Shown here piece after piece: positions 14,258 to 28,519 of a DNA stretch of 64,000 nt. Positions within the stretch are counted from its first letter, which is position 1. Each line of letters begins with the position of its first letter. The DNA is taken from NCBI GenBank assembly GCA_027064095.1, contig JAMOQI010000080.1, positions 13,620 through 77,619 on the forward strand. Direction: 5' to 3'. This stretch comes from Bacteroidales bacterium (GTDB lineage Bacteria > Bacteroidota > Bacteroidia > Bacteroidales > UBA1556). The translations under genes were made by a program, and so were the position numbers. The notes below the pieces were generated by a model. It did not search any database. It was not told the DNA's origin and saw only the letters and a list, made by a program, of their open reading frames with translations.

Positions 14258-14511
14258 TTAACCTGGATTATTCACAAGTAATCCTAACGATTAAGTAAAA
14301 CTAATAACCTCTGTTATAAAGTCTCACTCACAGAAAGATTATATCGAACTGAGGTTAATAAATTTAGATACTTTTCAAATACCCAAACTTGAGTTTATTA
14401 TAAATCAGCCTGTCCCGAACTTATATTAACAGGGTTTTCTCGCATTACACCCCACTTTTCATTACTCATTCATACAATTCGCTTTGCTTTTGTATGAATA
14501 ATGCAGATTAA
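14258..14511. mobile_element. MITE-like composite repeat, copy 2
   Basis: TIRs TTAACCTGGATTATTCA...TGAATAATGCAGATTAA, colinear with 2462-2711. Lies between convergent genes. Confidence 0.75.
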
Positions 14512-14539
14512 AGATATTTTTAATACTGGAAATAAATAA

Positions 14540-17804: not shown

Positions 17805-18659
17805 CTATAATCCGGGTCTAGTTCTCAATATCTCTTTATTAGCAATACTTAGAATAGGAACAGGAGATTGGTTCACCAATTGTTGTCCCTGAGAACCTAA
17901 CCATATATCCGATGCTAGCTTCTCTGTTTCTATCATAGTGGCAATCAAACCAGCATCTACTTTTATAGCGTAATTCATAATAGTCCTTGCACCGTTATTA
18001 GATTTTGTATAATGAGTAACAACTTTCTTTACCCCACTTTTTTCTAAAAACTTTTCTGTTTGTTCAACATAACTATTAACTCTCTTTCTGAGTGTACCAA
18101 CATTGGTAAAATAAAGGCCTAAAATATGAACTTCAGCACCATAAGCTAGGGCTATCTTTGTTGCAATTGGTAATTTTTGTCTGGTATCTAAAGTACTATC
18201 AATGGGTATTACTATTGTTTTTAGACCTCGTTTTAAAGTCCTGTGTTCACGTATAGTGATAACAGGGCATTTTGCCTCCGCAATAACATGATTTGCATTA
18301 TCTCCCATTAAAAACCTCCTAAATCCCTGATTACCATGCGCACCCATCATAATAATATCTACCTGATTTTCGATGGAAATTTTAACAATTTCTTTATAAG
18401 TAACTCCTTTTACTAATTTAAGCTCAACCATATCAGGGCTTATTCTATCTTTATAACCTTCTTTTATTTTATTAAAAGTTTCAGTTACCACATCATGTAA
18501 ATTCTGATCCTTGGTCAAATTAAGATGTCTAATAGAATTTTTATTTTCCACCCACACACATAGTAAACTCGATCTAAACCTACTAGCAAGACCTATTGCA
18601 TGGTCAAATGTATTCAATGAAGACTCTGAAAAATCTATTCCAACAAGTATCTCATTCAT
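17805..18659 (-). CDS. Universal stress protein (tandem USP domains)
   Basis: ILVGIDFS, MGAHG..G....GDNA, CPVIT, SPVPILS. Confidence 0.9.
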   Translation of the reverse strand: MNEILVGIDFSESSLNTFDHAIGLASRFRSSLLCVWVENKNSIRHLNLTKDQNLHDVVTETFNKIKEGYKDRISPDMVELKLVKGVTYKEIVKISIENQVDIIMMGAHGNQGFRRFLMGDNANHVIAEAKCPVITIREHRTLKRGLKTIVIPIDSTLDTRQKLPIATKIALAYGAEVHILGLYFTNVGTLRKRVNSYVEQTEKFLEKSGVKKVVTHYTKSNNGARTIMNYAIKVDAGLIATMIETEKLASDIWLGSQGQQLVNQSPVPILSIANKEILRTRPGL

Positions 18660-18896
18660 AAGAAAAACGTATTACAGTGATTAATTGCCACAAAGATAAC
18701 ACAAAAAGTTAATACTTTCAAATATCGGAATTTATAAATGAATAGAAAATTTTTCATCAAAATCAAAGTAAAAAGAATCTTATGACTACATTAACTTATT
18801 GATAATATGTATTCTAAAGCTATTAATAACAAAAAGTTTGATAGCAAAAACTTTTTTTCAGGCAAGACTCATAGATAAAAATATCTATAGTAAAAA

Positions 18897-19397
18897 TTAA
18901 GGTTTAATTTCATTTTTATCAATCTGATCTTTTTCAATATAGGGATAATTAATATCATCAGCAACTACAAAAGCGAAAGGATAATCCTTAAGAATAGATT
19001 GCATAAAGTATAAGGCGTCTAGCTTAGATATAAAATCACCAATTCTAACTTTAAAATAAGGTGAATTATAAACTACGTACACATGAATACCAGGGTAATC
19101 CATCAATAATTCAGCTTTTTCTTTATTAGCTTTATCCTTAGAGTTTACACCCGAAACTGATAATATCTGAATTCTATAACCTCTAAAACTTTTTTTGGTT
19201 TTGTTAACAACTATATTCTTTTTAAGAATAGATTCTATTTGTTCTGATTGATGGTAAACCACCATCCCCAAAGTGTCGGTAATATAATTATTTCTTTTAT
19301 AAAGGAAATTAGTATTAATGTCTTCTTGAGCATTAATACCTGTATATGTTGCAACAATAGCAAACAATAAAACAAATCTTACTATAATTTTTATCAT
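18897..19397 (-). CDS. SPOR-domain protein
   Basis: Signal peptide, GYRIQI, SPYFKVRIGDF, YPFAFVV. Confidence 0.85.
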   Translation of the reverse strand: MIKIIVRFVLLFAIVATYTGINAQEDINTNFLYKRNNYITDTLGMVVYHQSEQIESILKKNIVVNKTKKSFRGYRIQILSVSGVNSKDKANKEKAELLMDYPGIHVYVVYNSPYFKVRIGDFISKLDALYFMQSILKDYPFAFVVADDINYPYIEKDQIDKNEIKP

Positions 19398-19415
19398 CTT
19401 GCAAAATTATAAAAA

Positions 19416-20264
19416 CTATTTGGTTTGATAATCATAAATTGACTTTGATCTGATACTTAAAACAGGTATTGGGCTATGATTAACCATTTGCTGTGCATAA
19501 GGTCCTAAAAATAAATTCATTGGAGCAGACTCTTGATCTGTCATTATGCATATTAAATCTGAATTATTCTCTTTTGCGTATTTTATTGTTCCATCAGTAA
19601 CATTACCAACCTTAGCCACATCGGTAGAATATGGTATTTCATATTCATCTAAATATTTCTTGGTCTGCTCAGCATATTCATCTACCAAATCCCTAATTGA
19701 AGCAACATTAGAAGAATAAACTGAGAGAATTTGAACAGTTGCATTAAAACATTTTGCTAAAAAAGCCACAAATGGTACTTTCTGTCTGGTTTCACGTGTG
19801 CTATCAAGTGGTAATAAAATATTATTTATTGGTTTATTATAATCTTCATCATAACGAAGAGTGATAACCGGGCATTGCGCATTTGCAACAATCTTATAAG
19901 CATTACTGCCCATCCAAAACTCATCAAATCCTGATGTTCCATGAGTGCCAACAATAATTAATGTAGCATCGTGATATTTAGCTTGATTGGTTAACTCTTT
20001 ATGTACTTTCCCATTACGCATTTTATACAGAAATTTACCTCCTGTAAGTTCATCTTTGTATTCTTCTACTATTGCTTCAAATCTCTTTTTTGCTTCTAAT
20101 CGTGGATCAAATGCATTAGAATATACTGTATTTGTACTATTACCCTTGTCCACCCATACCATCATAAGATTTGCATTTATTTTATTAGATACATTTATTG
20201 CAAAATGTAGAGCATTCATTGCTCCTTCAGAAAAATCCATTCCTAATATAACTATCTTCTTCAT
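19416..20264 (-). CDS. Universal stress protein (paralogue of 17805-18659)
   Basis: From MKKIVILGMDFS; GTHGTSG...GSNA, CPVITLR, SPIPVLS. Confidence 0.9.
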   Translation of the reverse strand: MKKIVILGMDFSEGAMNALHFAINVSNKINANLMMVWVDKGNSTNTVYSNAFDPRLEAKKRFEAIVEEYKDELTGGKFLYKMRNGKVHKELTNQAKYHDATLIIVGTHGTSGFDEFWMGSNAYKIVANAQCPVITLRYDEDYNKPINNILLPLDSTRETRQKVPFVAFLAKCFNATVQILSVYSSNVASIRDLVDEYAEQTKKYLDEYEIPYSTDVAKVGNVTDGTIKYAKENNSDLICIMTDQESAPMNLFLGPYAQQMVNHSPIPVLSIRSKSIYDYQTK

Positions 20265-20777
20265 AATAGATAATAATTTAATAATTAATACGCACAGACA
20301 TTTACCACCGTAAAAATACAATAAATATATATAAAATACAAATTCAAATACTATTTTAAAGAAGAAACCAAATTATTCTTAAATAACTAATTATTTTATT
20401 GAGAAATAGTTTATAAAAAAATCTATTTTCTCATTCTTTTTTCATATTTTTGAAACTCAATTGTTTCATTGCTTATTGACTATTAAATCCTTTGTTTCTT
20501 CCCTAATAAAATATGAGATTCCATTACTTATAATGAAACATAAATAACTTTACATTTTAAAGTTTTAATTCAAATTTAACAGGAAGTTCACAAAAGGAAT
20601 TAATAAATATATAATTATCGATGATAATACTATTTTTATTATGTGATTATATATCACTTAATTAATAAAGTTTAAATATATGAAACACATATGATTAAAA
20701 TAATTATTAAACACACAAGAGAATGATTATTTTTATCATTAGGTGTTCCATATCACCAAAACAAACATTTTAAATAT

Positions 20778-22748
20778 ATGAAAGAAAACTTCAGTCCAAG
20801 AGAAAATTACATTAATACTCAGCAAAAAGTTGGTTATGTAAAAAGACGTAATGCTACCCAAGCAGACTACGACCGTGTTGGATTCATGTCAGGTCTAGAA
20901 GTGCATCAACAACTACTGACAAAGAAGAAATTATTTTGTCATTGTCCGGCAGGAGTATTTCACGATGATGACGACTATGATGCAGAGCTGCTACGTCATA
21001 TGAGGCCAACACTTAGTGAATTAGGAGAATATGATGGTACTGCTCTAATGGAGTTTAGAACTAGAAAAGACATTGTTTATAGAATTAAAAATGAAACAAC
21101 CTGCACCTACGAAGTTGATGACACTCCTCCATTTCCAATTGATAGAGAAGCTCTTGAAGAAGCAATTGAAATTTCGTTGTTATCAAAACTAAATATTGTT
21201 GGAGAAGTACATATTACCAGAAAGCAATATCTTGATGGAAGTATTCCAACAGGATTTCAAAGAACAGCTATTATTGGTGTTGAGGGCAAAATTGAATTAA
21301 AGAACAAAACAGTAAAACTAATACAACTCAGTATTGAGGAAGATAGTTGCCGTGAGATATCAGACATTGGCCACGTAAGAACTTATAAAACCGATAGACT
21401 TGGCATGCCATTAATTGAAACAGTTACCTATCCCGAATTTATAAATCCTGATGAAGTAAAAGAAGGCTGCGATTATATCAGATTTCTAAATAGAAGTACA
21501 GGAAAAGTAAGAACCGGAATGGGTGCTGGCAGACAGGATGTAAATGTTAGTTGTAAAGGTGGTAGCAGAGTTGAAATAAAAGGTGTGGCTCATACCAAAT
21601 GGATACCAGAACTTTCTCATAATGAAGTTTTCCGTCAATGGGCATTACTTCAAATAAAAGATGAATTAAATAAAAGAGTAAAAGACAAATCAAAGTGGAA
21701 AATAAGTCATTTAGCACTTTCTGAAGAAGACTTTGCCGGCAATAAAAATTTTGAAGGCATTTTTGATGACAACCACCAGGTTATTGCTGTACGGCTTCCG
21801 CATTTCTACAAATTGCTTTCACATTTCACGCAGCCGGAAAAAGTTTTTGCAAATGAGATAAGTGAAAGATTAAAGGTTATTGCATGCCTCGACCAACCAA
21901 ATATGACACATAGTGAGGATATAAATCCTATTCTTTCAGAGGATGAGATTCAAAACATATTCAAGAAGCTTAAAGCAAACAAAGATGATGCATTTGTAAT
22001 TTTTGATGCTGATCCTGAAGACATAAGTACTGCATTAGAAACAATAGAAGAAAGATGTTTAATAGCATTTGATGGGGTACCAGAGGAAACTCGCAAATCT
22101 TTAAGTGACGGCACAACAATTTTTGAAAGAGTGCTTCCTGGTGCTGACAGGATGTATCCCGATACCGATTCAGCTCCTATTCCTCTGAGTGAAGATTATA
22201 TCGAAAAACTAAGAAAGGGATTACCTGAAGATATAATTGACAGGTACCATAAAATGCAAGATTGGGGCGTAGCAAAAGATACTTTCACTTATATTTTGTC
22301 GAAAAACCTATTCCCTATTTTGGATAAAACAATTAAAATAACAAACTTCACGCCTAAGCAAATTGGAAATTTTCTTGGCCATAACTTCAAATTTATCGAA
22401 GGCCAATATTCTAAAAATATTGATTTTAGATACGAACAAATAATAGACTTATTTAAGTATTTAGAAAGTAAAAACCTTGATATTGATATTGCACATAATA
22501 TACTGATTGAACTTTATCAACATTCAAAAATGGATTTTGACTCTATTTTAAAGAGTATTAATTTCAACAAGAAAACCAGGCAAGAAATTATAGATCAGAT
22601 ACCATTTTTAAGAGAAAAATTTAAGACTGAAGGCAAAAAGCAAACACCGGAAATTGAACATAAATGGATAATGGGTAAATTAAATAAAATGGCTTTGGGA
22701 AATATCAATTTGAGTGAGCTTAGCAAAATTATTAAAACTAAAGGTTAA
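20778..22748 (+). CDS. gatE: Glu-tRNA(Gln) amidotransferase subunit E (archaeal type)
   Basis: GLEVHQQL..KKLFC, RPTLSELGEYD, DGSIPTGFQRT, EEDSCR, DRLGMPLIE, RQDVNVS, RVEIKGV, central insertion, RVLPGADRMYPDTD. Confidence 0.93.
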   Translation: MKENFSPRENYINTQQKVGYVKRRNATQADYDRVGFMSGLEVHQQLLTKKKLFCHCPAGVFHDDDDYDAELLRHMRPTLSELGEYDGTALMEFRTRKDIVYRIKNETTCTYEVDDTPPFPIDREALEEAIEISLLSKLNIVGEVHITRKQYLDGSIPTGFQRTAIIGVEGKIELKNKTVKLIQLSIEEDSCREISDIGHVRTYKTDRLGMPLIETVTYPEFINPDEVKEGCDYIRFLNRSTGKVRTGMGAGRQDVNVSCKGGSRVEIKGVAHTKWIPELSHNEVFRQWALLQIKDELNKRVKDKSKWKISHLALSEEDFAGNKNFEGIFDDNHQVIAVRLPHFYKLLSHFTQPEKVFANEISERLKVIACLDQPNMTHSEDINPILSEDEIQNIFKKLKANKDDAFVIFDADPEDISTALETIEERCLIAFDGVPEETRKSLSDGTTIFERVLPGADRMYPDTDSAPIPLSEDYIEKLRKGLPEDIIDRYHKMQDWGVAKDTFTYILSKNLFPILDKTIKITNFTPKQIGNFLGHNFKFIEGQYSKNIDFRYEQIIDLFKYLESKNLDIDIAHNILIELYQHSKMDFDSILKSINFNKKTRQEIIDQIPFLREKFKTEGKKQTPEIEHKWIMGKLNKMALGNINLSELSKIIKTKG

Positions 22749-22749
22749 T

Positions 22750-24132
22750 ATGGAAGAGTTATTTCAAGGATATAAAGGCGATGCTTTAGCCTTACTTAAG
22801 AAGTATAATGTAAGAGTCTGGGGTCATGCAAAAGTGGAAACAACAAGAGGTCCATTCGAAGGAACTATCTTACCTAGATCAGAAAATGATGATGACAAAC
22901 ATATTGTCATGAAAATAGTTACAGGATATAATGTTGGAATTGACACTAACACTATCACAAAAATAGAAGAGTTGGGATATAAGAAAGCCAATTACGCAAT
23001 TCCAGAAAAAGAATTTCCATACACAAAAGGACTTCCTAAGGTAAAACTAATGGGTACAGGAGGAACTATTGCCTCACGATTAGATTATAGAACGGGAGCA
23101 GTAATACCCGCTTTTTCACCAGGAGAACTCTATGGAGCCGTTCCTGAATTGGCAGAGATATGTAATCTTGAAACAGAAAAAGTTTTTGCTGTTTTCAGTG
23201 AAAATATGGGACCAAAGCAATATATTGCTCTTGCAAAAGCTATAGGAAAAGAAATAGAAAGAGGTGTGGATGGAATTGTAATTGGTCATGGTACGGATAC
23301 ACTTCATCATACAGCTGCTGCTTTAACTTTTATGGTTCAAGATTCTCCTATACCTATTGTTTTGGTAGGGTCTCAACGCTCTTCTGACCGACCAAGCTCC
23401 GATGCTGCTTTAAACCTAATGCACGCTATGAAAGCTGCCGGCGAAGGTGATATTGCTGAAGTAATGGTCTGTATGTTTGGTCCTACTTCTGATGAGTATG
23501 GATTGCTGCACAAAGGAACACGAGTACGGAAAATGCACTCCTCTTATCGTTCTACTTTCCGAACAATCGGAGATGTGCCATTGGCAAGAATAAATAGGAA
23601 AGAAATTATACCTATAAAAAAAGATTACAAAAAGCGTCGACACGATAAAAATGTCAAGATACTTCCTTATTTTGATAACAATGTAGCCATGTTATACTTT
23701 TGGCCAGGAATGCCTTCAAAGGTTATGGACTCATTAATTGATGCCGGCTATAAGGGAATAATTATTGTTGGAACAGGATTAGGTCATGTAAACAAAGAAC
23801 TATATCCAGCAATTGAGAGAGCGCAAAAAGAAGGAGTTCATGTATTTATGACGCTTCAAACTCTTTGGGGATATGTCCATATGTTTGTTTATGATACCGG
23901 ACGCGACCTAATGGCTAAAGGCATAATTCCTTTAGGAAATATGCTTCCTGAAGTTGCTTGGGTAAAACTTAGTTGGGTACTTGGTCAAACTTCTGACCCT
24001 GAAAAGGTAAAAGAAATGATGTTAGATTCTATTAATGACGAAATATCTGAACGAGAACCTTATAATGGATATTTAGTTTATCAAGGTGGAATACCTGAAG
24101 TTGAAGATTTTATTAAGAATGTACATAAATAA
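22750..24132 (+). CDS. gatD: Glu-tRNA(Gln) amidotransferase subunit D
   Basis: GatD N-domain (KIVTGYNVGI), TGGTIASRLDYRTGAV, HGTDT, GSQRSSDRPSSDA, RKMH. ATG 1 nt after the gatE stop. Confidence 0.93.
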   Translation: MEELFQGYKGDALALLKKYNVRVWGHAKVETTRGPFEGTILPRSENDDDKHIVMKIVTGYNVGIDTNTITKIEELGYKKANYAIPEKEFPYTKGLPKVKLMGTGGTIASRLDYRTGAVIPAFSPGELYGAVPELAEICNLETEKVFAVFSENMGPKQYIALAKAIGKEIERGVDGIVIGHGTDTLHHTAAALTFMVQDSPIPIVLVGSQRSSDRPSSDAALNLMHAMKAAGEGDIAEVMVCMFGPTSDEYGLLHKGTRVRKMHSSYRSTFRTIGDVPLARINRKEIIPIKKDYKKRRHDKNVKILPYFDNNVAMLYFWPGMPSKVMDSLIDAGYKGIIIVGTGLGHVNKELYPAIERAQKEGVHVFMTLQTLWGYVHMFVYDTGRDLMAKGIIPLGNMLPEVAWVKLSWVLGQTSDPEKVKEMMLDSINDEISEREPYNGYLVYQGGIPEVEDFIKNVHK

Positions 24133-24275
24133 TAATTATATATACTGAACTTTTAATAATCTGAATAATAGTTATATCTAATATTTTTTATTAGTTTTAT
24201 ATTATTTCTCAGTGATATATTATCTGATATATATAATACTATTTTGTTTATCAACAATCGACAAACAAACCTTTA

Positions 24276-25334
24276 ATGAATAAAAGAGCCAAAATAATTT
24301 CACAAACATTTTCTGGATGGAGAATATTCATAGCGGTATTTATTGGCATGTCTGTAAGCATTTATTTAATTTTAGACGACTTCTCTTTTACACTCTATAA
24401 CACAATTGATTGGACACTACATTCATTACTGTTTTTATTATTAGCAATAATTTTTGAAGCAATAAGGGATATCGCATATATGTATCGCATACGCCTTATG
24501 ACTGATGGTGAAATCAAGTGGCGACAAAGTTTTCAAGTGATAATGTTATGGGAATTTGCCTCAGCATTAACACCCTCAGTGGTTGGAGGTTCTGCTGTAG
24601 CTCTATATATTGTAAACAAAGAAATAAATAATCCGGGTAAAGCCACCGCCATAGTTATGATAACAGCATTATTAGATGAGCTGTTCTATGTAATAATGGT
24701 TCCAATAATATTTCTATTTATCGGGACAAATGAATTATTTATAAATACAGAATTCAATCTATTTAAGCTGGGGAGTTTTCCTACGCAAACAATTTTCTTT
24801 ATTGGTTATTCTTTTATTTTATTACTCACATCCATAATATCTTTTGCAATATTCTATCGTCCAAAACTTTTCAAAAGTCTATTAAATTCTATTTTCAGTA
24901 TAAGTATTCTAAAACGCTGGAAAGAACGAGCCAATAAAACAGGTGAAGAAATAATAATTACCTCAGAACAAATGAAAGGCAAAAAACTTGTCTTTTGGAT
25001 TAAAGCTTATGCCTCAACTTTAATATCATGGACAGCACGTTTTGCTGTTATCAATATGCTAATACTTGTATTAAAAGGTGATGGTAATCAAATTATAATA
25101 TTTGCCAGACAGTTAGTCATGTGGGTAATTCTACTAATCAGTCCAACTCCAGGGGGGAGTGGTGTAGCAGAATATATGCTCCCAAAATTTTTAGGAGAAT
25201 ATATGGGTGCTTTTGGAAACGAAATAGCCCTCAGTTGGCGTTTATTAAGCTACTATTCTTATTTGTTTATCGGCTCTATTGTATTGCCAATTTGGCTACA
25301 AAGAGTTTATAAAATTAAAAAGAAAGATGCCTAA
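24276..25334 (+). CDS. LPG-synthase TM domain / UPF0104 flippase-like protein
   Basis: Multiple TM helices, ALTPSVVGG, SPTPGGSGVAE, WRLLSYY. Confidence 0.85.
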   Translation: MNKRAKIISQTFSGWRIFIAVFIGMSVSIYLILDDFSFTLYNTIDWTLHSLLFLLLAIIFEAIRDIAYMYRIRLMTDGEIKWRQSFQVIMLWEFASALTPSVVGGSAVALYIVNKEINNPGKATAIVMITALLDELFYVIMVPIIFLFIGTNELFINTEFNLFKLGSFPTQTIFFIGYSFILLLTSIISFAIFYRPKLFKSLLNSIFSISILKRWKERANKTGEEIIITSEQMKGKKLVFWIKAYASTLISWTARFAVINMLILVLKGDGNQIIIFARQLVMWVILLISPTPGGSGVAEYMLPKFLGEYMGAFGNEIALSWRLLSYYSYLFIGSIVLPIWLQRVYKIKKKDA

Positions 25335-26328
25335 ACTAAGCATTATCTTACCATTTTACAATGCTGAGAACACAATACAAAGGGCTGTTTTAAGTATTAT
25401 AAATCAGACTTTTATTGATTTTGAATGCATTCTTATCGACAATAAATCTACCGATAATAGTAGAAATATAATTCTCCAAACTATAAAAAATGACAGAAGG
25501 TTTATTTTAACCGAAGAACCTAAACAAGGTGTTGTTTTTGCATCAAATAGAGGAAGTGAATTAGCTAAGGGAGAATATATCGCGAGAATGGATTCTGATG
25601 ATGAATGCTATGCAAATAGGTTTGAGAAACAAATTGCCTTCTTAGACTCTAATGAAGATTATGGAGCTGTATCCGGGATAGTAGAATTTGCTGGAAATAA
25701 AAGCAATAGTCGTGGGTTCGCCAATTATATTGACTGGGTTAATTCTGTAAATACATACAAACTGATAATAAGAAAAAGGTTTATAGAATCACCAATTGTC
25801 AACCCATCGGCTATGTGGCGACAAAAAGTCAGTAATCAGTACGGTATGTACATAGAATCTGATTTGCCGGAAGATTATGAGCTATGGCTAAGATGGCTTT
25901 CTTATGGAGTAAAAATTGGAAAAGTAAAAGACAAAGTATTAAAATGGTATGACTCATCCACCAGGCTTACAAGAACGGATAAAAGATATAGCAATATGGC
26001 TTTCTACAAAGTTAAAAGTCCATTTTTAGTTGATTATCTTAAAAAAATTAATCCACATTTTCCCAAAGTAACCATATGGGGAGCCAGTAAAATATCGCGA
26101 CAAAGAGCAAAACTATTAGAGAAATTAGGTGTAGACATTTCAGGATATATAGATATAAGTAGAAAAAGAAAACTGCAAGATAATATTATATATTACAAAG
26201 AGATAGCACCGCCACAAGACATTTTCATACTTGTATATGTGCGGCAAGTGAATATGCGGCAACAAGTACAAAAATATCTTGAAAGCAAGTTGTTTAAAGA
26301 AGGGAAAAACTATTTACTGATATCTTAA
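25327..26328 (+). CDS. Family 2 glycosyltransferase
   Basis: SIILPFYN, IDNKSTD, ARMDSDD, EDYELW. Start at MPKLS. Confidence 0.9.
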   Translation: MPKLSIILPFYNAENTIQRAVLSIINQTFIDFECILIDNKSTDNSRNIILQTIKNDRRFILTEEPKQGVVFASNRGSELAKGEYIARMDSDDECYANRFEKQIAFLDSNEDYGAVSGIVEFAGNKSNSRGFANYIDWVNSVNTYKLIIRKRFIESPIVNPSAMWRQKVSNQYGMYIESDLPEDYELWLRWLSYGVKIGKVKDKVLKWYDSSTRLTRTDKRYSNMAFYKVKSPFLVDYLKKINPHFPKVTIWGASKISRQRAKLLEKLGVDISGYIDISRKRKLQDNIIYYKEIAPPQDIFILVYVRQVNMRQQVQKYLESKLFKEGKNYLLIS

Positions 26329-26335
26329 ACTCGAA

Positions 26336-27148
26336 TTATAAACCCTTTAATAATTCCGTAATTATTACAGTAAGCTTAGGCTCCGCTGATGCGGCTGCTT
26401 CCAACACCTCCTCATGAGACACTTCAGCAACAACACCTTCTACACCAAGATCGGTAACTATAGAAGCTGCAAAGCAAGGAATACCAGCATGTCGTGCAAC
26501 AATCGCCTCAGGGACAGTACTCATACCAACAGTATCGCCACCAATAATCCTAAAATATTTGTATTCTGCAGGAGTTTCAAAAGTAGGACCTGTGGTACCA
26601 ACATATACTCCATGATGTACTAAAATATCATTTTCTTTAGCAATTTCTGTTGCTCTGGCTACCAATTTCTTATCATATACTTCGCTGAAGTCCGGGAATC
26701 TAACTCCTAGTCTATCATCGTTTGGCCCCATTAATGGATTGTCAGGGAATAAATTTATATGGTCAGTAATAATCATAATATCACCAACTTTAAAATCAGG
26801 ATTCATACCACCTGCAGCATTAGAAAGCACTAGTAATTCAATTCCTAATTCTTTCATTATTCTGATAGGGAAAGTAACCTCTTTCATCTGGTATCCTTCA
26901 TAAAAGTGGAAACGTCCTTGCATAGCAACAACTTTTTTACCACCTAAATATCCAAAAACTAATTGTCCTTTATGACCTGAAACAGTAGACACAGGAAAAT
27001 TGGGAATATCCTTATACGAAATAGCTTTTTCTACTTCAATATGATTTCCAAGGTTACCCAAACCTGACCCCAATACAATACCTATCTGTGGATTAAAATC
27101 AATTTGTTTCTTTATAAACTCCGTAGTCTGCTTTATTTTCTCGTACAT
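26336..27148 (-). CDS. Purine-nucleoside phosphorylase (trimeric type)
   Basis: LGSGLG, GRFHFYEG, NAAGG, GPTFETPAE, VGMSTVPE. Confidence 0.95.
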   Translation of the reverse strand: MYEKIKQTTEFIKKQIDFNPQIGIVLGSGLGNLGNHIEVEKAISYKDIPNFPVSTVSGHKGQLVFGYLGGKKVVAMQGRFHFYEGYQMKEVTFPIRIMKELGIELLVLSNAAGGMNPDFKVGDIMIITDHINLFPDNPLMGPNDDRLGVRFPDFSEVYDKKLVARATEIAKENDILVHHGVYVGTTGPTFETPAEYKYFRIIGGDTVGMSTVPEAIVARHAGIPCFAASIVTDLGVEGVVAEVSHEEVLEAAASAEPKLTVIITELLKGL

Positions 27149-28136
27149 AATTCTCTATAATTTCTTTAAAAATAATTTTATCATTTCCCAAAAATGAAAT
27201 TCTAATTGGTAATTTATACACTGCTGATTTTTTAATTTCTATAAAATCAGAAAGTCTTACAGCATCCTTTTCACTTGTGATTAGAATATTATTTTGGCCT
27301 GCAAAGCTATTAATTTTTTCATTAATAGCAACAATGTCCTTTGAAGTAAATTTGTAATGATCGCGATAAGCCAAATGATAAACCCCACTGAAAGGATATT
27401 TATTTCGTATAAAATCCTCCATTGACTTTGGGTTTGCTAAACCACTAACGAGTAAAATATTATCAATTTGTTGCAAATCTACCTGCTCATTACTAAAAGC
27501 AACTAGATTATCATATTCAATTTTTGAGAAAAGAACAGGTGAGTCAGTAAAAGCACTAATATCATTAATAATCCGTTTACGTTCTTCATCAGAAATATCA
27601 GCAGGACACTTAGTAACAACTACTACATCAGAGCGTTTTGCGGCTTTTGGATTCTCCCTTAGTCGCCCTACAGGCATAGACTTATCTTTAGTAAATATTT
27701 TGGAATAATCCGTAAGTAATATATTTAAGCCCGCCTTAATTGCCCTATGCTGATACGCATCATCCAATAGTATCACATCAGTTTTGGGATACTGAAATAA
27801 TAATTTAGTAACAGCCTCTACCCTATTTTCTCCAACAAAAACACCTACGTCAGGGAATTTTTGTTTTATCTGCAAAGGCTCATCACCACAGTCTATCGCT
27901 TTGGAATCATCAAAGACCTCTCTAAATCCTTTAGTCTTACGGCCATAACCTCGACTTAATGTTGCAACATTATAGTTTTTCTTCAGAAGCTTAACAATAT
28001 ATTCAATATGAGGAGTTTTCCCACTTCCCCCTACGGCAAGGTTGCCAACATTTATAATTGGAAAGTCGAATGACGACGACTTTAAAATCCCTTTATCAAA
28101 AAGGTAATTCCGTATTTGTGTGATTAATGTGTACAT
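27099..28136 (-). CDS. lpxK: Tetraacyldisaccharide 4'-kinase
   Basis: VGNLAVGGSGKTP, LSRGYGR, GDEP, LDDAYQH, PVGRLRE, TSEKD. Confidence 0.93.
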   Translation of the reverse strand: MYTLITQIRNYLFDKGILKSSSFDFPIINVGNLAVGGSGKTPHIEYIVKLLKKNYNVATLSRGYGRKTKGFREVFDDSKAIDCGDEPLQIKQKFPDVGVFVGENRVEAVTKLLFQYPKTDVILLDDAYQHRAIKAGLNILLTDYSKIFTKDKSMPVGRLRENPKAAKRSDVVVVTKCPADISDEERKRIINDISAFTDSPVLFSKIEYDNLVAFSNEQVDLQQIDNILLVSGLANPKSMEDFIRNKYPFSGVYHLAYRDHYKFTSKDIVAINEKINSFAGQNNILITSEKDAVRLSDFIEIKKSAVYKLPIRISFLGNDKIIFKEIIENYVRENKADYGVYKETN

Positions 28137-28346
28137 TAAGATATTAAATTAAAAACAATATCGAATTTATGTACTGCTAATCAATACTTTATCAAATCCA
28201 ATATTTGTAAGCCTAAATGCAAATTTACTAATATTTTTATTCATTATTGAAATTGATTAATCTTTTGAAAAAGGATAAATTCAAATGGTAAATGCAATTT
28301 ATAAAAGATTGACAAATAAACATATTTACATTAAAGTAAAAATACA

Positions 28347-28354
28347 TACATTTG
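28347..28354 (+). promoter_or_regulatory. Bacteroidota sigma-A -7 box upstream of the riboswitch
   Basis: TACATTTG matches TAnnTTTG, 5 nt before riboswitch P1. Confidence 0.7.
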
Positions 28355-28358
28355 CAAT

Positions 28359-28519
28359 TGATGGTTTCTCTATAAAGAGGACTAAGAGGGAATTAGGTGA
28401 AAATCCTAAACAGTTCCCGCTGCTGTAAGCTCTGTAAACATTCTGATATTAAGCCACTTTTTGAAAAACAAAAGGGAAGGCGTCGGAAAATGTGGAGTAA
28501 GTCAGAAGACCTACCATCA
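28359..28519 (+). ncRNA. Cobalamin riboswitch
   Basis: AAGAGGGAA-TTAGGTGAAAATCCTAA, CCCGCTGCTGT, GCCACT...GGGAAGG, B12 box AGTCAGAAGACCT. P1 pairs TGATGGT with ACCATCA. Sits upstream of a TBDR. Confidence 0.93.

Follow-up and report, generated by a model that had tools for sequence, protein, structure and literature searches.

The amidotransferase GatDE is termed an archaeal signature enzyme, exclusive to archaea and dedicated to glutamine, in PMC2330236, PMC2811023 and PMC2943598, and PMC2330236 describes archaeal GatDE as reading the first pair, A1-U72, of its tRNA. A second useful comparison is Bdellovibrio bacteriovorus, in which an aspartyl-tRNA synthetase of non-discriminating type (ND-AspRS) and GatCAB as amidotransferase occur together with glutaminyl-tRNA synthetase (GlnRS), asparaginyl-tRNA synthetase (AsnRS), one AspRS, a tRNA-Asn with a U1-A72 first pair and no AsnA or AsnB, a gene content that PMC4206432 reads as tRNA-dependent asparagine synthesis. 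Here, we describe a gatE-gatD pair in the genome of a Bacteroidales bacterium (GTDB lineage UBA1556; assembly GCA_027064095.1), located in a 64,000-nucleotide stretch of contig JAMOQI010000080.1 (positions 13,620 to 77,619, hereafter the window, in whose coordinates features are given). The pair encodes a GatDE that is intact and belongs to a subfamily related to that of Asgard archaea. Because its gatE-positive relatives usually lack the asparagine synthetase genes asnA and asnB, it likely makes asparagine rather than glutamine on tRNA, and we put at about even the chance that GatDE is a tRNA-dependent asparagine synthetase in these bacteria, working alongside AsnRS.

The kinase/amidation subunit, of the subfamily that we call Y-type (motif RKQYLDGSIP), is encoded by gatE (20778..22748, forward strand, 656 amino acids), and the ammonia-donating subunit, with GatD_N and a type I asparaginase fold, by gatD (22750..24132, forward strand, 460 amino acids). 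The gatD ATG at 22750 lies one base past the gatE stop codon on the same strand; the GTG start given by the ORF finder, at 22714, would overlap gatE. As the first-pass annotation of this DNA had stated, both genes are full-length, lie 1 nucleotide apart and carry all the catalytic motifs named there, and both products pass the cut-offs of curated hidden Markov models (HMMs) in NCBIfam: GatE scores 466.5 bits against NF003107 (cut-off 456) and 398 against TIGR00134 (cut-off 320), and GatD scores 512 against TIGR02153 (cut-off 324) and 509 against NF003217 (cut-off 310). GatB models score GatE far under their cut-offs, and most asparaginase models score GatD far lower than the GatD models do. 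Pfam GatD_N was detected in GatD, and the GAD insertion of GatE reaches 21.2 bits, slightly below the Pfam cut-off of 23.4. The top PDB matches by sequence are archaeal GatE and GatD (2D6F, 1ZQ1), and the best fold matches of the AlphaFold model of GatE (pLDDT 92) are the GatE chains 1zq1_C and 2d6f (E 1e-41 to 1e-45).

By alignment, residues H43, E187 and E214 of GatE correspond to the archaeal His15, Glu157 and Glu184, the kinase Mg ligands named in PMC2330236; GatD keeps the Thr nucleophile and the Thr-Lys-Asp triad (T106, T182, D183, K261). The Mg-ligand motifs are intact in 119/119 close homologues of GatE, and the four GatD motifs in all 55 loci with a long GatD. The model and the fold match indicate that the helical domain and the tail for tRNA binding are retained in GatE, the tail without its archaeal motif and the GAD insertion in eroded form. 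The N-terminal extension of GatE, put at about 30 residues in the first-pass annotation, is real: it comprises 28 amino acids, archaeal alignments begin at residue 29-30, and the AlphaFold model places a helix at 7-18. Motif invariance, HMM scores and tree position make the pair members of the GatDE protein family, and from gene adjacency and homology the two products would be expected to form an alpha2beta2 complex.

With the archaeal enzymes of M. thermautotrophicus (2D6F) and P. abyssi (1ZQ1) the pair thus shares the curated HMMs, the GatE fold, the Mg ligands, the GAD insertion, the GatD N-domain and the asparaginase residues. It differs from them in its bacterial host, in the presence of GlnRS and AsnRS in the lineage, in tRNA-Gln genes with U1-A72, in the motif RKQYLDGSIP where archaea have RKIVIDGSN, in the order gatE-gatD rather than gatD-gatE, and in a GatE that has the extension and lacks both the tail motif and the Gln of the KGVQ loop. 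By protein family the pair is a GatDE, but the context that defines the archaeal Glu-tRNA-Gln amidotransferase system is not found here.

The source bin is a metagenome assembly of 84 contigs and 2.13 Mb, only 85.6% complete, and no single piece from the public sequencing runs covers the entire 17-kb stretch, so that a chimera of the assembly, contamination by archaeal DNA or a recent transfer now in decay had to be considered. Such an artefact or relic is refuted by the presence of the gene in 141/301 genomes of the order and by the synteny, empty-site, depth, codon, motif and protein-distance evidence, and we give it next to no weight. The left flank (fba-usp-SPOR-usp-gatE-gatD) is repeated in six relatives from the genus, contigs from public runs that match letter for letter have even depth over both flanks (10.6-11.6 in run X1), and one 7.7-kb public-run piece covers 20754-28430; the best-matching runs, X1 included, may be the source reads and are not independent of the assembly. 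Codon use is host-like: GC content at third codon positions is 0.244 for gatE and 0.228 for gatD (genome 0.218 +/- 0.028), and the codon distances of the two genes lie at the 53rd and 74th percentile of the genome. The concern about the flanks raised in the first-pass annotation thus fell away. In other families gatED lies between a permease gene and a NUDIX gene, and these two genes are directly adjacent, as empty sites, in 2/5 gatE-negative genomes examined. Named close homologues are from Bacteroidales or Bacteroidetes. Judged by median identity over 14 genomes (GatE 64%, GatD 81%, AspRS 70%), GatDE is conserved at the level of housekeeping proteins; GatE distances track AspRS distances (Mantel 0.71, p 0.0005), as do those of GatD (0.37, p 0.014). 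The gene pair is old, mostly inherited and patchily lost. On plasmids, no near-full-length GatE was found, save one haloarchaeal record at 71% cover. Among the public runs listed as containing the sequence, none was of RNA.

Across the order, sampled with 301 Bacteroidales genomes each at least 85% complete, full-length GatE (53-70% identity) occurs in 141 genomes, and 8 further genomes have weak GatB-like matches only; within the genus, 9/14 genomes have a GatE match. Outside the order, GatB was found in 69/78 genomes of the phylum, so that these relatives keep an amidotransferase. Cluster representatives form a broad tier of bacterial GatE at ~40-58% identity, including one named CSSED10-310 and one named Deltaproteobacteria, and automated annotation already gives these bacterial proteins the name GatE. 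In the open literature, with subscription papers and supplements outside the scope, neither bacterial nor Asgard-type GatDE turned up as the subject of a paper; the supplement of PMC4206432 contains a genome survey that may be relevant to this negative.

The motif RKQYLDGSIP had been read in the first-pass annotation as the mark of a distinct bacterial clade. The clade holds (SH-like approximate likelihood ratio test, SH-aLRT, 99-100); the motif is no bacterial novelty, being exact in proteins annotated as Heimdallarchaeota and Hodarchaeales. GatE of Njord-, Loki-, Thor-, Odin- and Baldrarchaeia carries RK[QN]YLDGSV, and the canonical RKIVIDGSN is found in TACK archaea, in Asgardarchaeia and elsewhere. 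Most Asgard GatE matches are Y-type, and the canonical Asgard ones that were looked up all came from clusters labelled Asgardarchaeia or Odin. A GatE tree (81 rows including 8 of GatB as outgroup, LG+G4, quick search, one Natrinema row left out) separates canonical GatE (SH-aLRT 95) from Y-type plus bacterial GatE (93), and within the latter the bacteria form one clade (100) that is sister to Heimdall (98). A mixture-model tree of 30 rows without GatB, also by quick search, recovers the same split (100) and the grouping of Heimdall with bacteria (96). The GatD tree, rooted with asparaginases, gives the corresponding canonical (91/92) and Y-type plus bacterial (96/94) groups, the sister of the bacteria being here Loki-like, not Heimdall-like (89/95). 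Both proteins place with GatE and GatD, not with GatB or free asparaginases, which answers the check by trees that the first-pass annotation had proposed. Gene order follows the same division: gatD comes directly after gatE in 18/30 Y-type archaeal copies vs 0/51 canonical ones, 13 canonical copies having gatD in front (archaeal metagenome loci were called Asgard-like by similarity).

From these trees and motifs, both bacterial subunits fall in one Asgard-archaeal Y-type subfamily, with which they share RK[QN]YLDGS, the diagnostic columns and the gatE-gatD order (Heimdall-, Hod-, Njord-, Loki-, Thor-, Odin- and Baldrarchaeia). They differ from the Asgard copies in lacking the KGVQ Gln, present in 23/23 of those, and the tail motif, present in most. 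We know of no characterisation of Asgard Y-type GatDE. Of the old inter-domain transfer proposed in the first-pass annotation, long residence is borne out and transfer is likely, as judged from the phylogenies. Its direction is not fixed: in an approximately unbiased (AU) test on 35 rows, archaeal monophyly with the bacteria outside was not rejected (p 0.39), which makes an Asgard donor likely at most. In one Asgard-like contig (L122:7965-14489), two Y-type gatE-gatD pairs that differ from each other stand in tandem, the second GatE apparently without a C-terminal tail; this hints that the work on Gln and Asn may have begun to be divided in archaea.

The genome of the window by itself could suggest that GatDE replaces GlnRS. 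The bin has no match to glnS, gatA, gatB or glutamine synthetase; searches with amidase and GatB_N models (GatC was not searched) gave no amidase match and this GatE as the sole GatB_N match. Three unrelated genes that neighbour glnS and glutamine synthetase in the closest relatives are also absent from the bin, which points to an assembly gap. In the order, glnS is present in 292/301 genomes (137/141 gatE-positive vs 155/160 gatE-negative), and both tRNA-Gln genes of the genome begin with U1-A72 and not the archaeal A1-U72, as does tRNA-Asn. A supply of Gln-tRNA in place of GlnRS, one of the roles suggested in the first-pass annotation, is thereby not supported; the other role suggested there, a repurposed enzyme, is the putative one that we favour. 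Replacement of glutamine synthetase is rejected on its presence in 78/80 genomes, including 40/40 gatE-positive ones, and replacement of AsnRS by its presence in 66/69 gatE-positive Bacteroidales. Two 99%-complete genomes of one family (G078 and G203) have GatE, a GatB-like match and AsnRS, without glnS, asnA or housekeeping asnB, and a division of labour between two amidotransferases is possible in them.

The genes that gatE avoids are the asparagine synthetases. asnA occurs in 17/141 gatE-positive vs 88/160 gatE-negative genomes and housekeeping (E. coli-type) asnB in 9/141 vs 84/160; one or the other is present in 25/141 vs 118/160, so that 116 of the 141 gatE-positive genomes lack both. 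These counts depend on long models scored for at most 4 candidates per genome, by which some asnB may be missed. As kin are not independent, one genome per family was drawn (141 families, 1000 draws), with p at most 2e-6. A paired test on a GlnRS tree of 89 genomes, picked by available coordinates and not by trait, gave 11 independent pairs, 6.9 concordant vs 0.3 discordant (sign-test p between 0.002 and 0.69, with a median of 0.03); a tree of one gene is a poor substitute for the species tree. The genome of the window has AsnRS, one AspRS and tRNA-Asn with U1-A72, and its 85.6% complete bin has no asnA or asnB match. A divergent AsnA-like gene convergent with gatD was seen once (L076:11020-12147, genome G066; Pfam AsnA E 3e-79), and genome G204 has an AsnA of similarly low score.

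In the pathway that would account for this avoidance, the single AspRS would mischarge tRNA-Asn (U1-A72) with Asp, GatE would use ATP to phosphorylate the beta-carboxyl of the tRNA-bound Asp, and GatD would free ammonia from Gln and send it through a tunnel, yielding Asn-tRNA-Asn. AsnRS would be kept for the use of free Asn (salvage), as is argued for Bdellovibrio with GatCAB (PMC4206432). The setting resembles that of Bdellovibrio (PMC4206432) in GlnRS, AsnRS, a single AspRS, U1-A72 in tRNA-Asn and the lack of AsnA and AsnB. It differs in that the amidotransferase is GatDE, not GatCAB, and that here a relaxed AspRS, an Asp-tRNA-Asn substrate and the amidotransferase activity on it are putative.

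The GatE loops point away from the archaeal substrate. The KGVQ-loop Gln (aligned with Gln240 of 2D6F), which reportedly has a role in reading A1-U72 (Oshikane, 2006), is kept by archaeal GatE of both kinds, Y-type (23/23) and canonical (22/24), but by none of 26 bacterial GatE; a search for literature on this residue found none of relevance. PMC2811023 places loops of the KGVQ region beside the first pair of the tRNA and links the GatE tail motif to the choice of Gln versus Asn. That motif (GXXAXGX) was not seen, by eye, in any bacterial GatE row, and the GAD insertion is eroded at conserved positions. Taken at the level of the alignments, the lost Gln, the lost tail motif and the eroded GAD insertion show release from archaeal tRNA-Gln; bacterial tRNA-Gln and tRNA-Asn both have U1-A72, so these changes cannot distinguish which of the two is read.

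Several observations weigh against asparagine synthesis by GatDE. Some concern the genetic pattern: by the paired test neither asnA nor asnB is significant on its own (median p 0.125 for each), 25 of the 141 gatE-positive genomes have asnA or asnB after all, and AsnB-family paralogs of any kind occur in 77 of the 141. In 13 families of mixed status, 14/16 gatE-negative members lack asnA and asnB, the loss of gatE being mostly uncompensated. Forty-two of the 301 genomes lack gatE, asnA and asnB, with GatB in only 2 of them; the other 40, many of them small, have no gatE, asnA, housekeeping asnB or GatB and are apparent Asn auxotrophs or users of another route. Outside the order, the 3/78 genomes with a GatE-sized second match, judged by score and frame length, all have it beside GatB. 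An unlinked gene of ~500 codons resembling glutamine synthetase I (e.g. L073:3470-4969) occurs in 39/40 gatE-positive vs 13/40 gatE-negative genomes and so tracks gatE as closely as the asn pattern does, which means that a shared lifestyle could drive that pattern; it is rare (5/27) in genomes with asnA or asnB but no gatE. In 7 of 20 wide loci this gene lies 6-8 kb from gatED, as part of an old synteny block, and across the 20 loci no conserved functional neighbour, and no aspS, asnS or tRNA-Asn, was found. Other observations concern the enzymes. The His/Gly residues that are markers of non-discriminating AspRS are found in 0/70 Bacteroidales AspRS, and the AspRS anticodon loops are alike in gatE-positive and gatE-negative genomes. 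Five GatB-positive Bacteroidia that were checked all have GlnRS, and their AspRS lacks the markers too (5/5), which weakens this counterpoint without removing it. A gatE-linked AspRS signature was dropped, as its top columns lay mostly outside the anticodon loops and the genome set had been chosen by trait. The GAD insertion is still present in GatE, and for the GatDE of M. thermautotrophicus no binding to ND-AspRS was found (PMC2943598); this counts against an Asn transamidosome that is stable but leaves a two-step route unaffected. Finally, most Asgard GatE matches are Y-type and PMC9499178 describes archaea as having no GlnRS, so that the Y motif does not in itself have to point to asparagine.

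Two other functions compete with asparagine synthesis. GatDE could have kept its ancestral Glu-tRNA-Gln amidotransferase job, adapted to U1-A72 tRNA-Gln, as a back-up or repair beside GlnRS. This is the sole activity known for GatDE (PMC2330236, PMC2811023), the GAD insertion that is retained here cradles ND-GluRS (non-discriminating glutamyl-tRNA synthetase; PMC2943598), the loss of the KGVQ Gln could be mere adaptation to U1-A72, which tRNA-Gln also has, and four gatE-positive genomes, the window's included, have no glnS match. Against this, glnS is present in the other 137 with no anti-correlation, its absence from the window's bin points to the assembly gap, and of the four without glnS two show a GatB-like match as well. 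In the window's genome, the one examined for this, GluRS has Arg at the position of T. thermophilus R358, which we presume to be a marker, if an imperfect one, of discrimination. Continued glutamine synthesis would also leave the avoidance of asnA and asnB unexplained, and we regard it as unlikely. Alternatively, GatDE may act on a substrate other than tRNA mischarged for translation, either free Asp or Glu or an aminoacyl-tRNA with a non-ribosomal use, and a shared peptide-fermenting lifestyle would then account for the asn pattern. Co-occurrence with GlnRS, AsnRS and sometimes GatB should make GatDE redundant in translation, the tail and insertion of GatE are divergent, the glutamine-synthetase-like gene co-varies with gatE, and 40 genomes tolerate the absence of all routes. 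Yet the parts of GatE for tRNA binding (fold, helical domain, tail) are retained, archaeal GatD shows no activity unless charged tRNA is present (PMC2330236), and none of the 20 wide loci shows a conserved pathway neighbour; such a role outside translation seems less probable still.

Two dispersed repeats and a stress-gene block also lie in the window. A ~105-bp repeat copy (20680..20783, forward strand), with ATGAAA-like bounds, ends on the gatE start codon. It has 17 same-sense matches in the window's genome, some in tandem, other copies sitting on start codons of unrelated genes, and no match in the examined loci of relatives or in Rfam; a regulatory leader 5' of gatE was rejected, the region being this dispersed start-codon repeat. 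A second dispersed intergenic repeat of ~250 bp (window ~14258-14520) gives 136 blastn pieces genome-wide. Divergent from gatE, at 17805-20321, two universal-stress-protein genes surround a SPOR-domain gene, a block conserved in the genus only.

The statement that GatDE is confined to archaea is wrong, given its presence in 141/301 Bacteroidales and in other bacterial groups. We tentatively propose, short of an even chance for the scenario as a whole, that GatDE has a second deep subfamily, the Y-type, common to many bacteria and the Asgard archaea, and that an early exchange between Asgard archaea and bacteria was followed by a switch of the bacterial branch to Asp-tRNA-Asn. This branch would supply about half of the Bacteroidales families with asparagine and be the first asparagine-making GatDE, a third route beside AsnA/AsnB and GatCAB. 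PMC2330236 calls the cause of Gln/Asn specificity in amidotransferases an open question, and if the bacterial enzyme does make Asn-tRNA, Asgard and bacterial Y-type GatDE would be a natural pair for tests of Gln- versus Asn-specificity. With the Asgard link, an old exchange of translation machinery between the domains would lie near those archaea that are related to eukaryotes, and formation of Asn-tRNA by GatDE would remove the apparent asparagine auxotrophy of many anaerobes.

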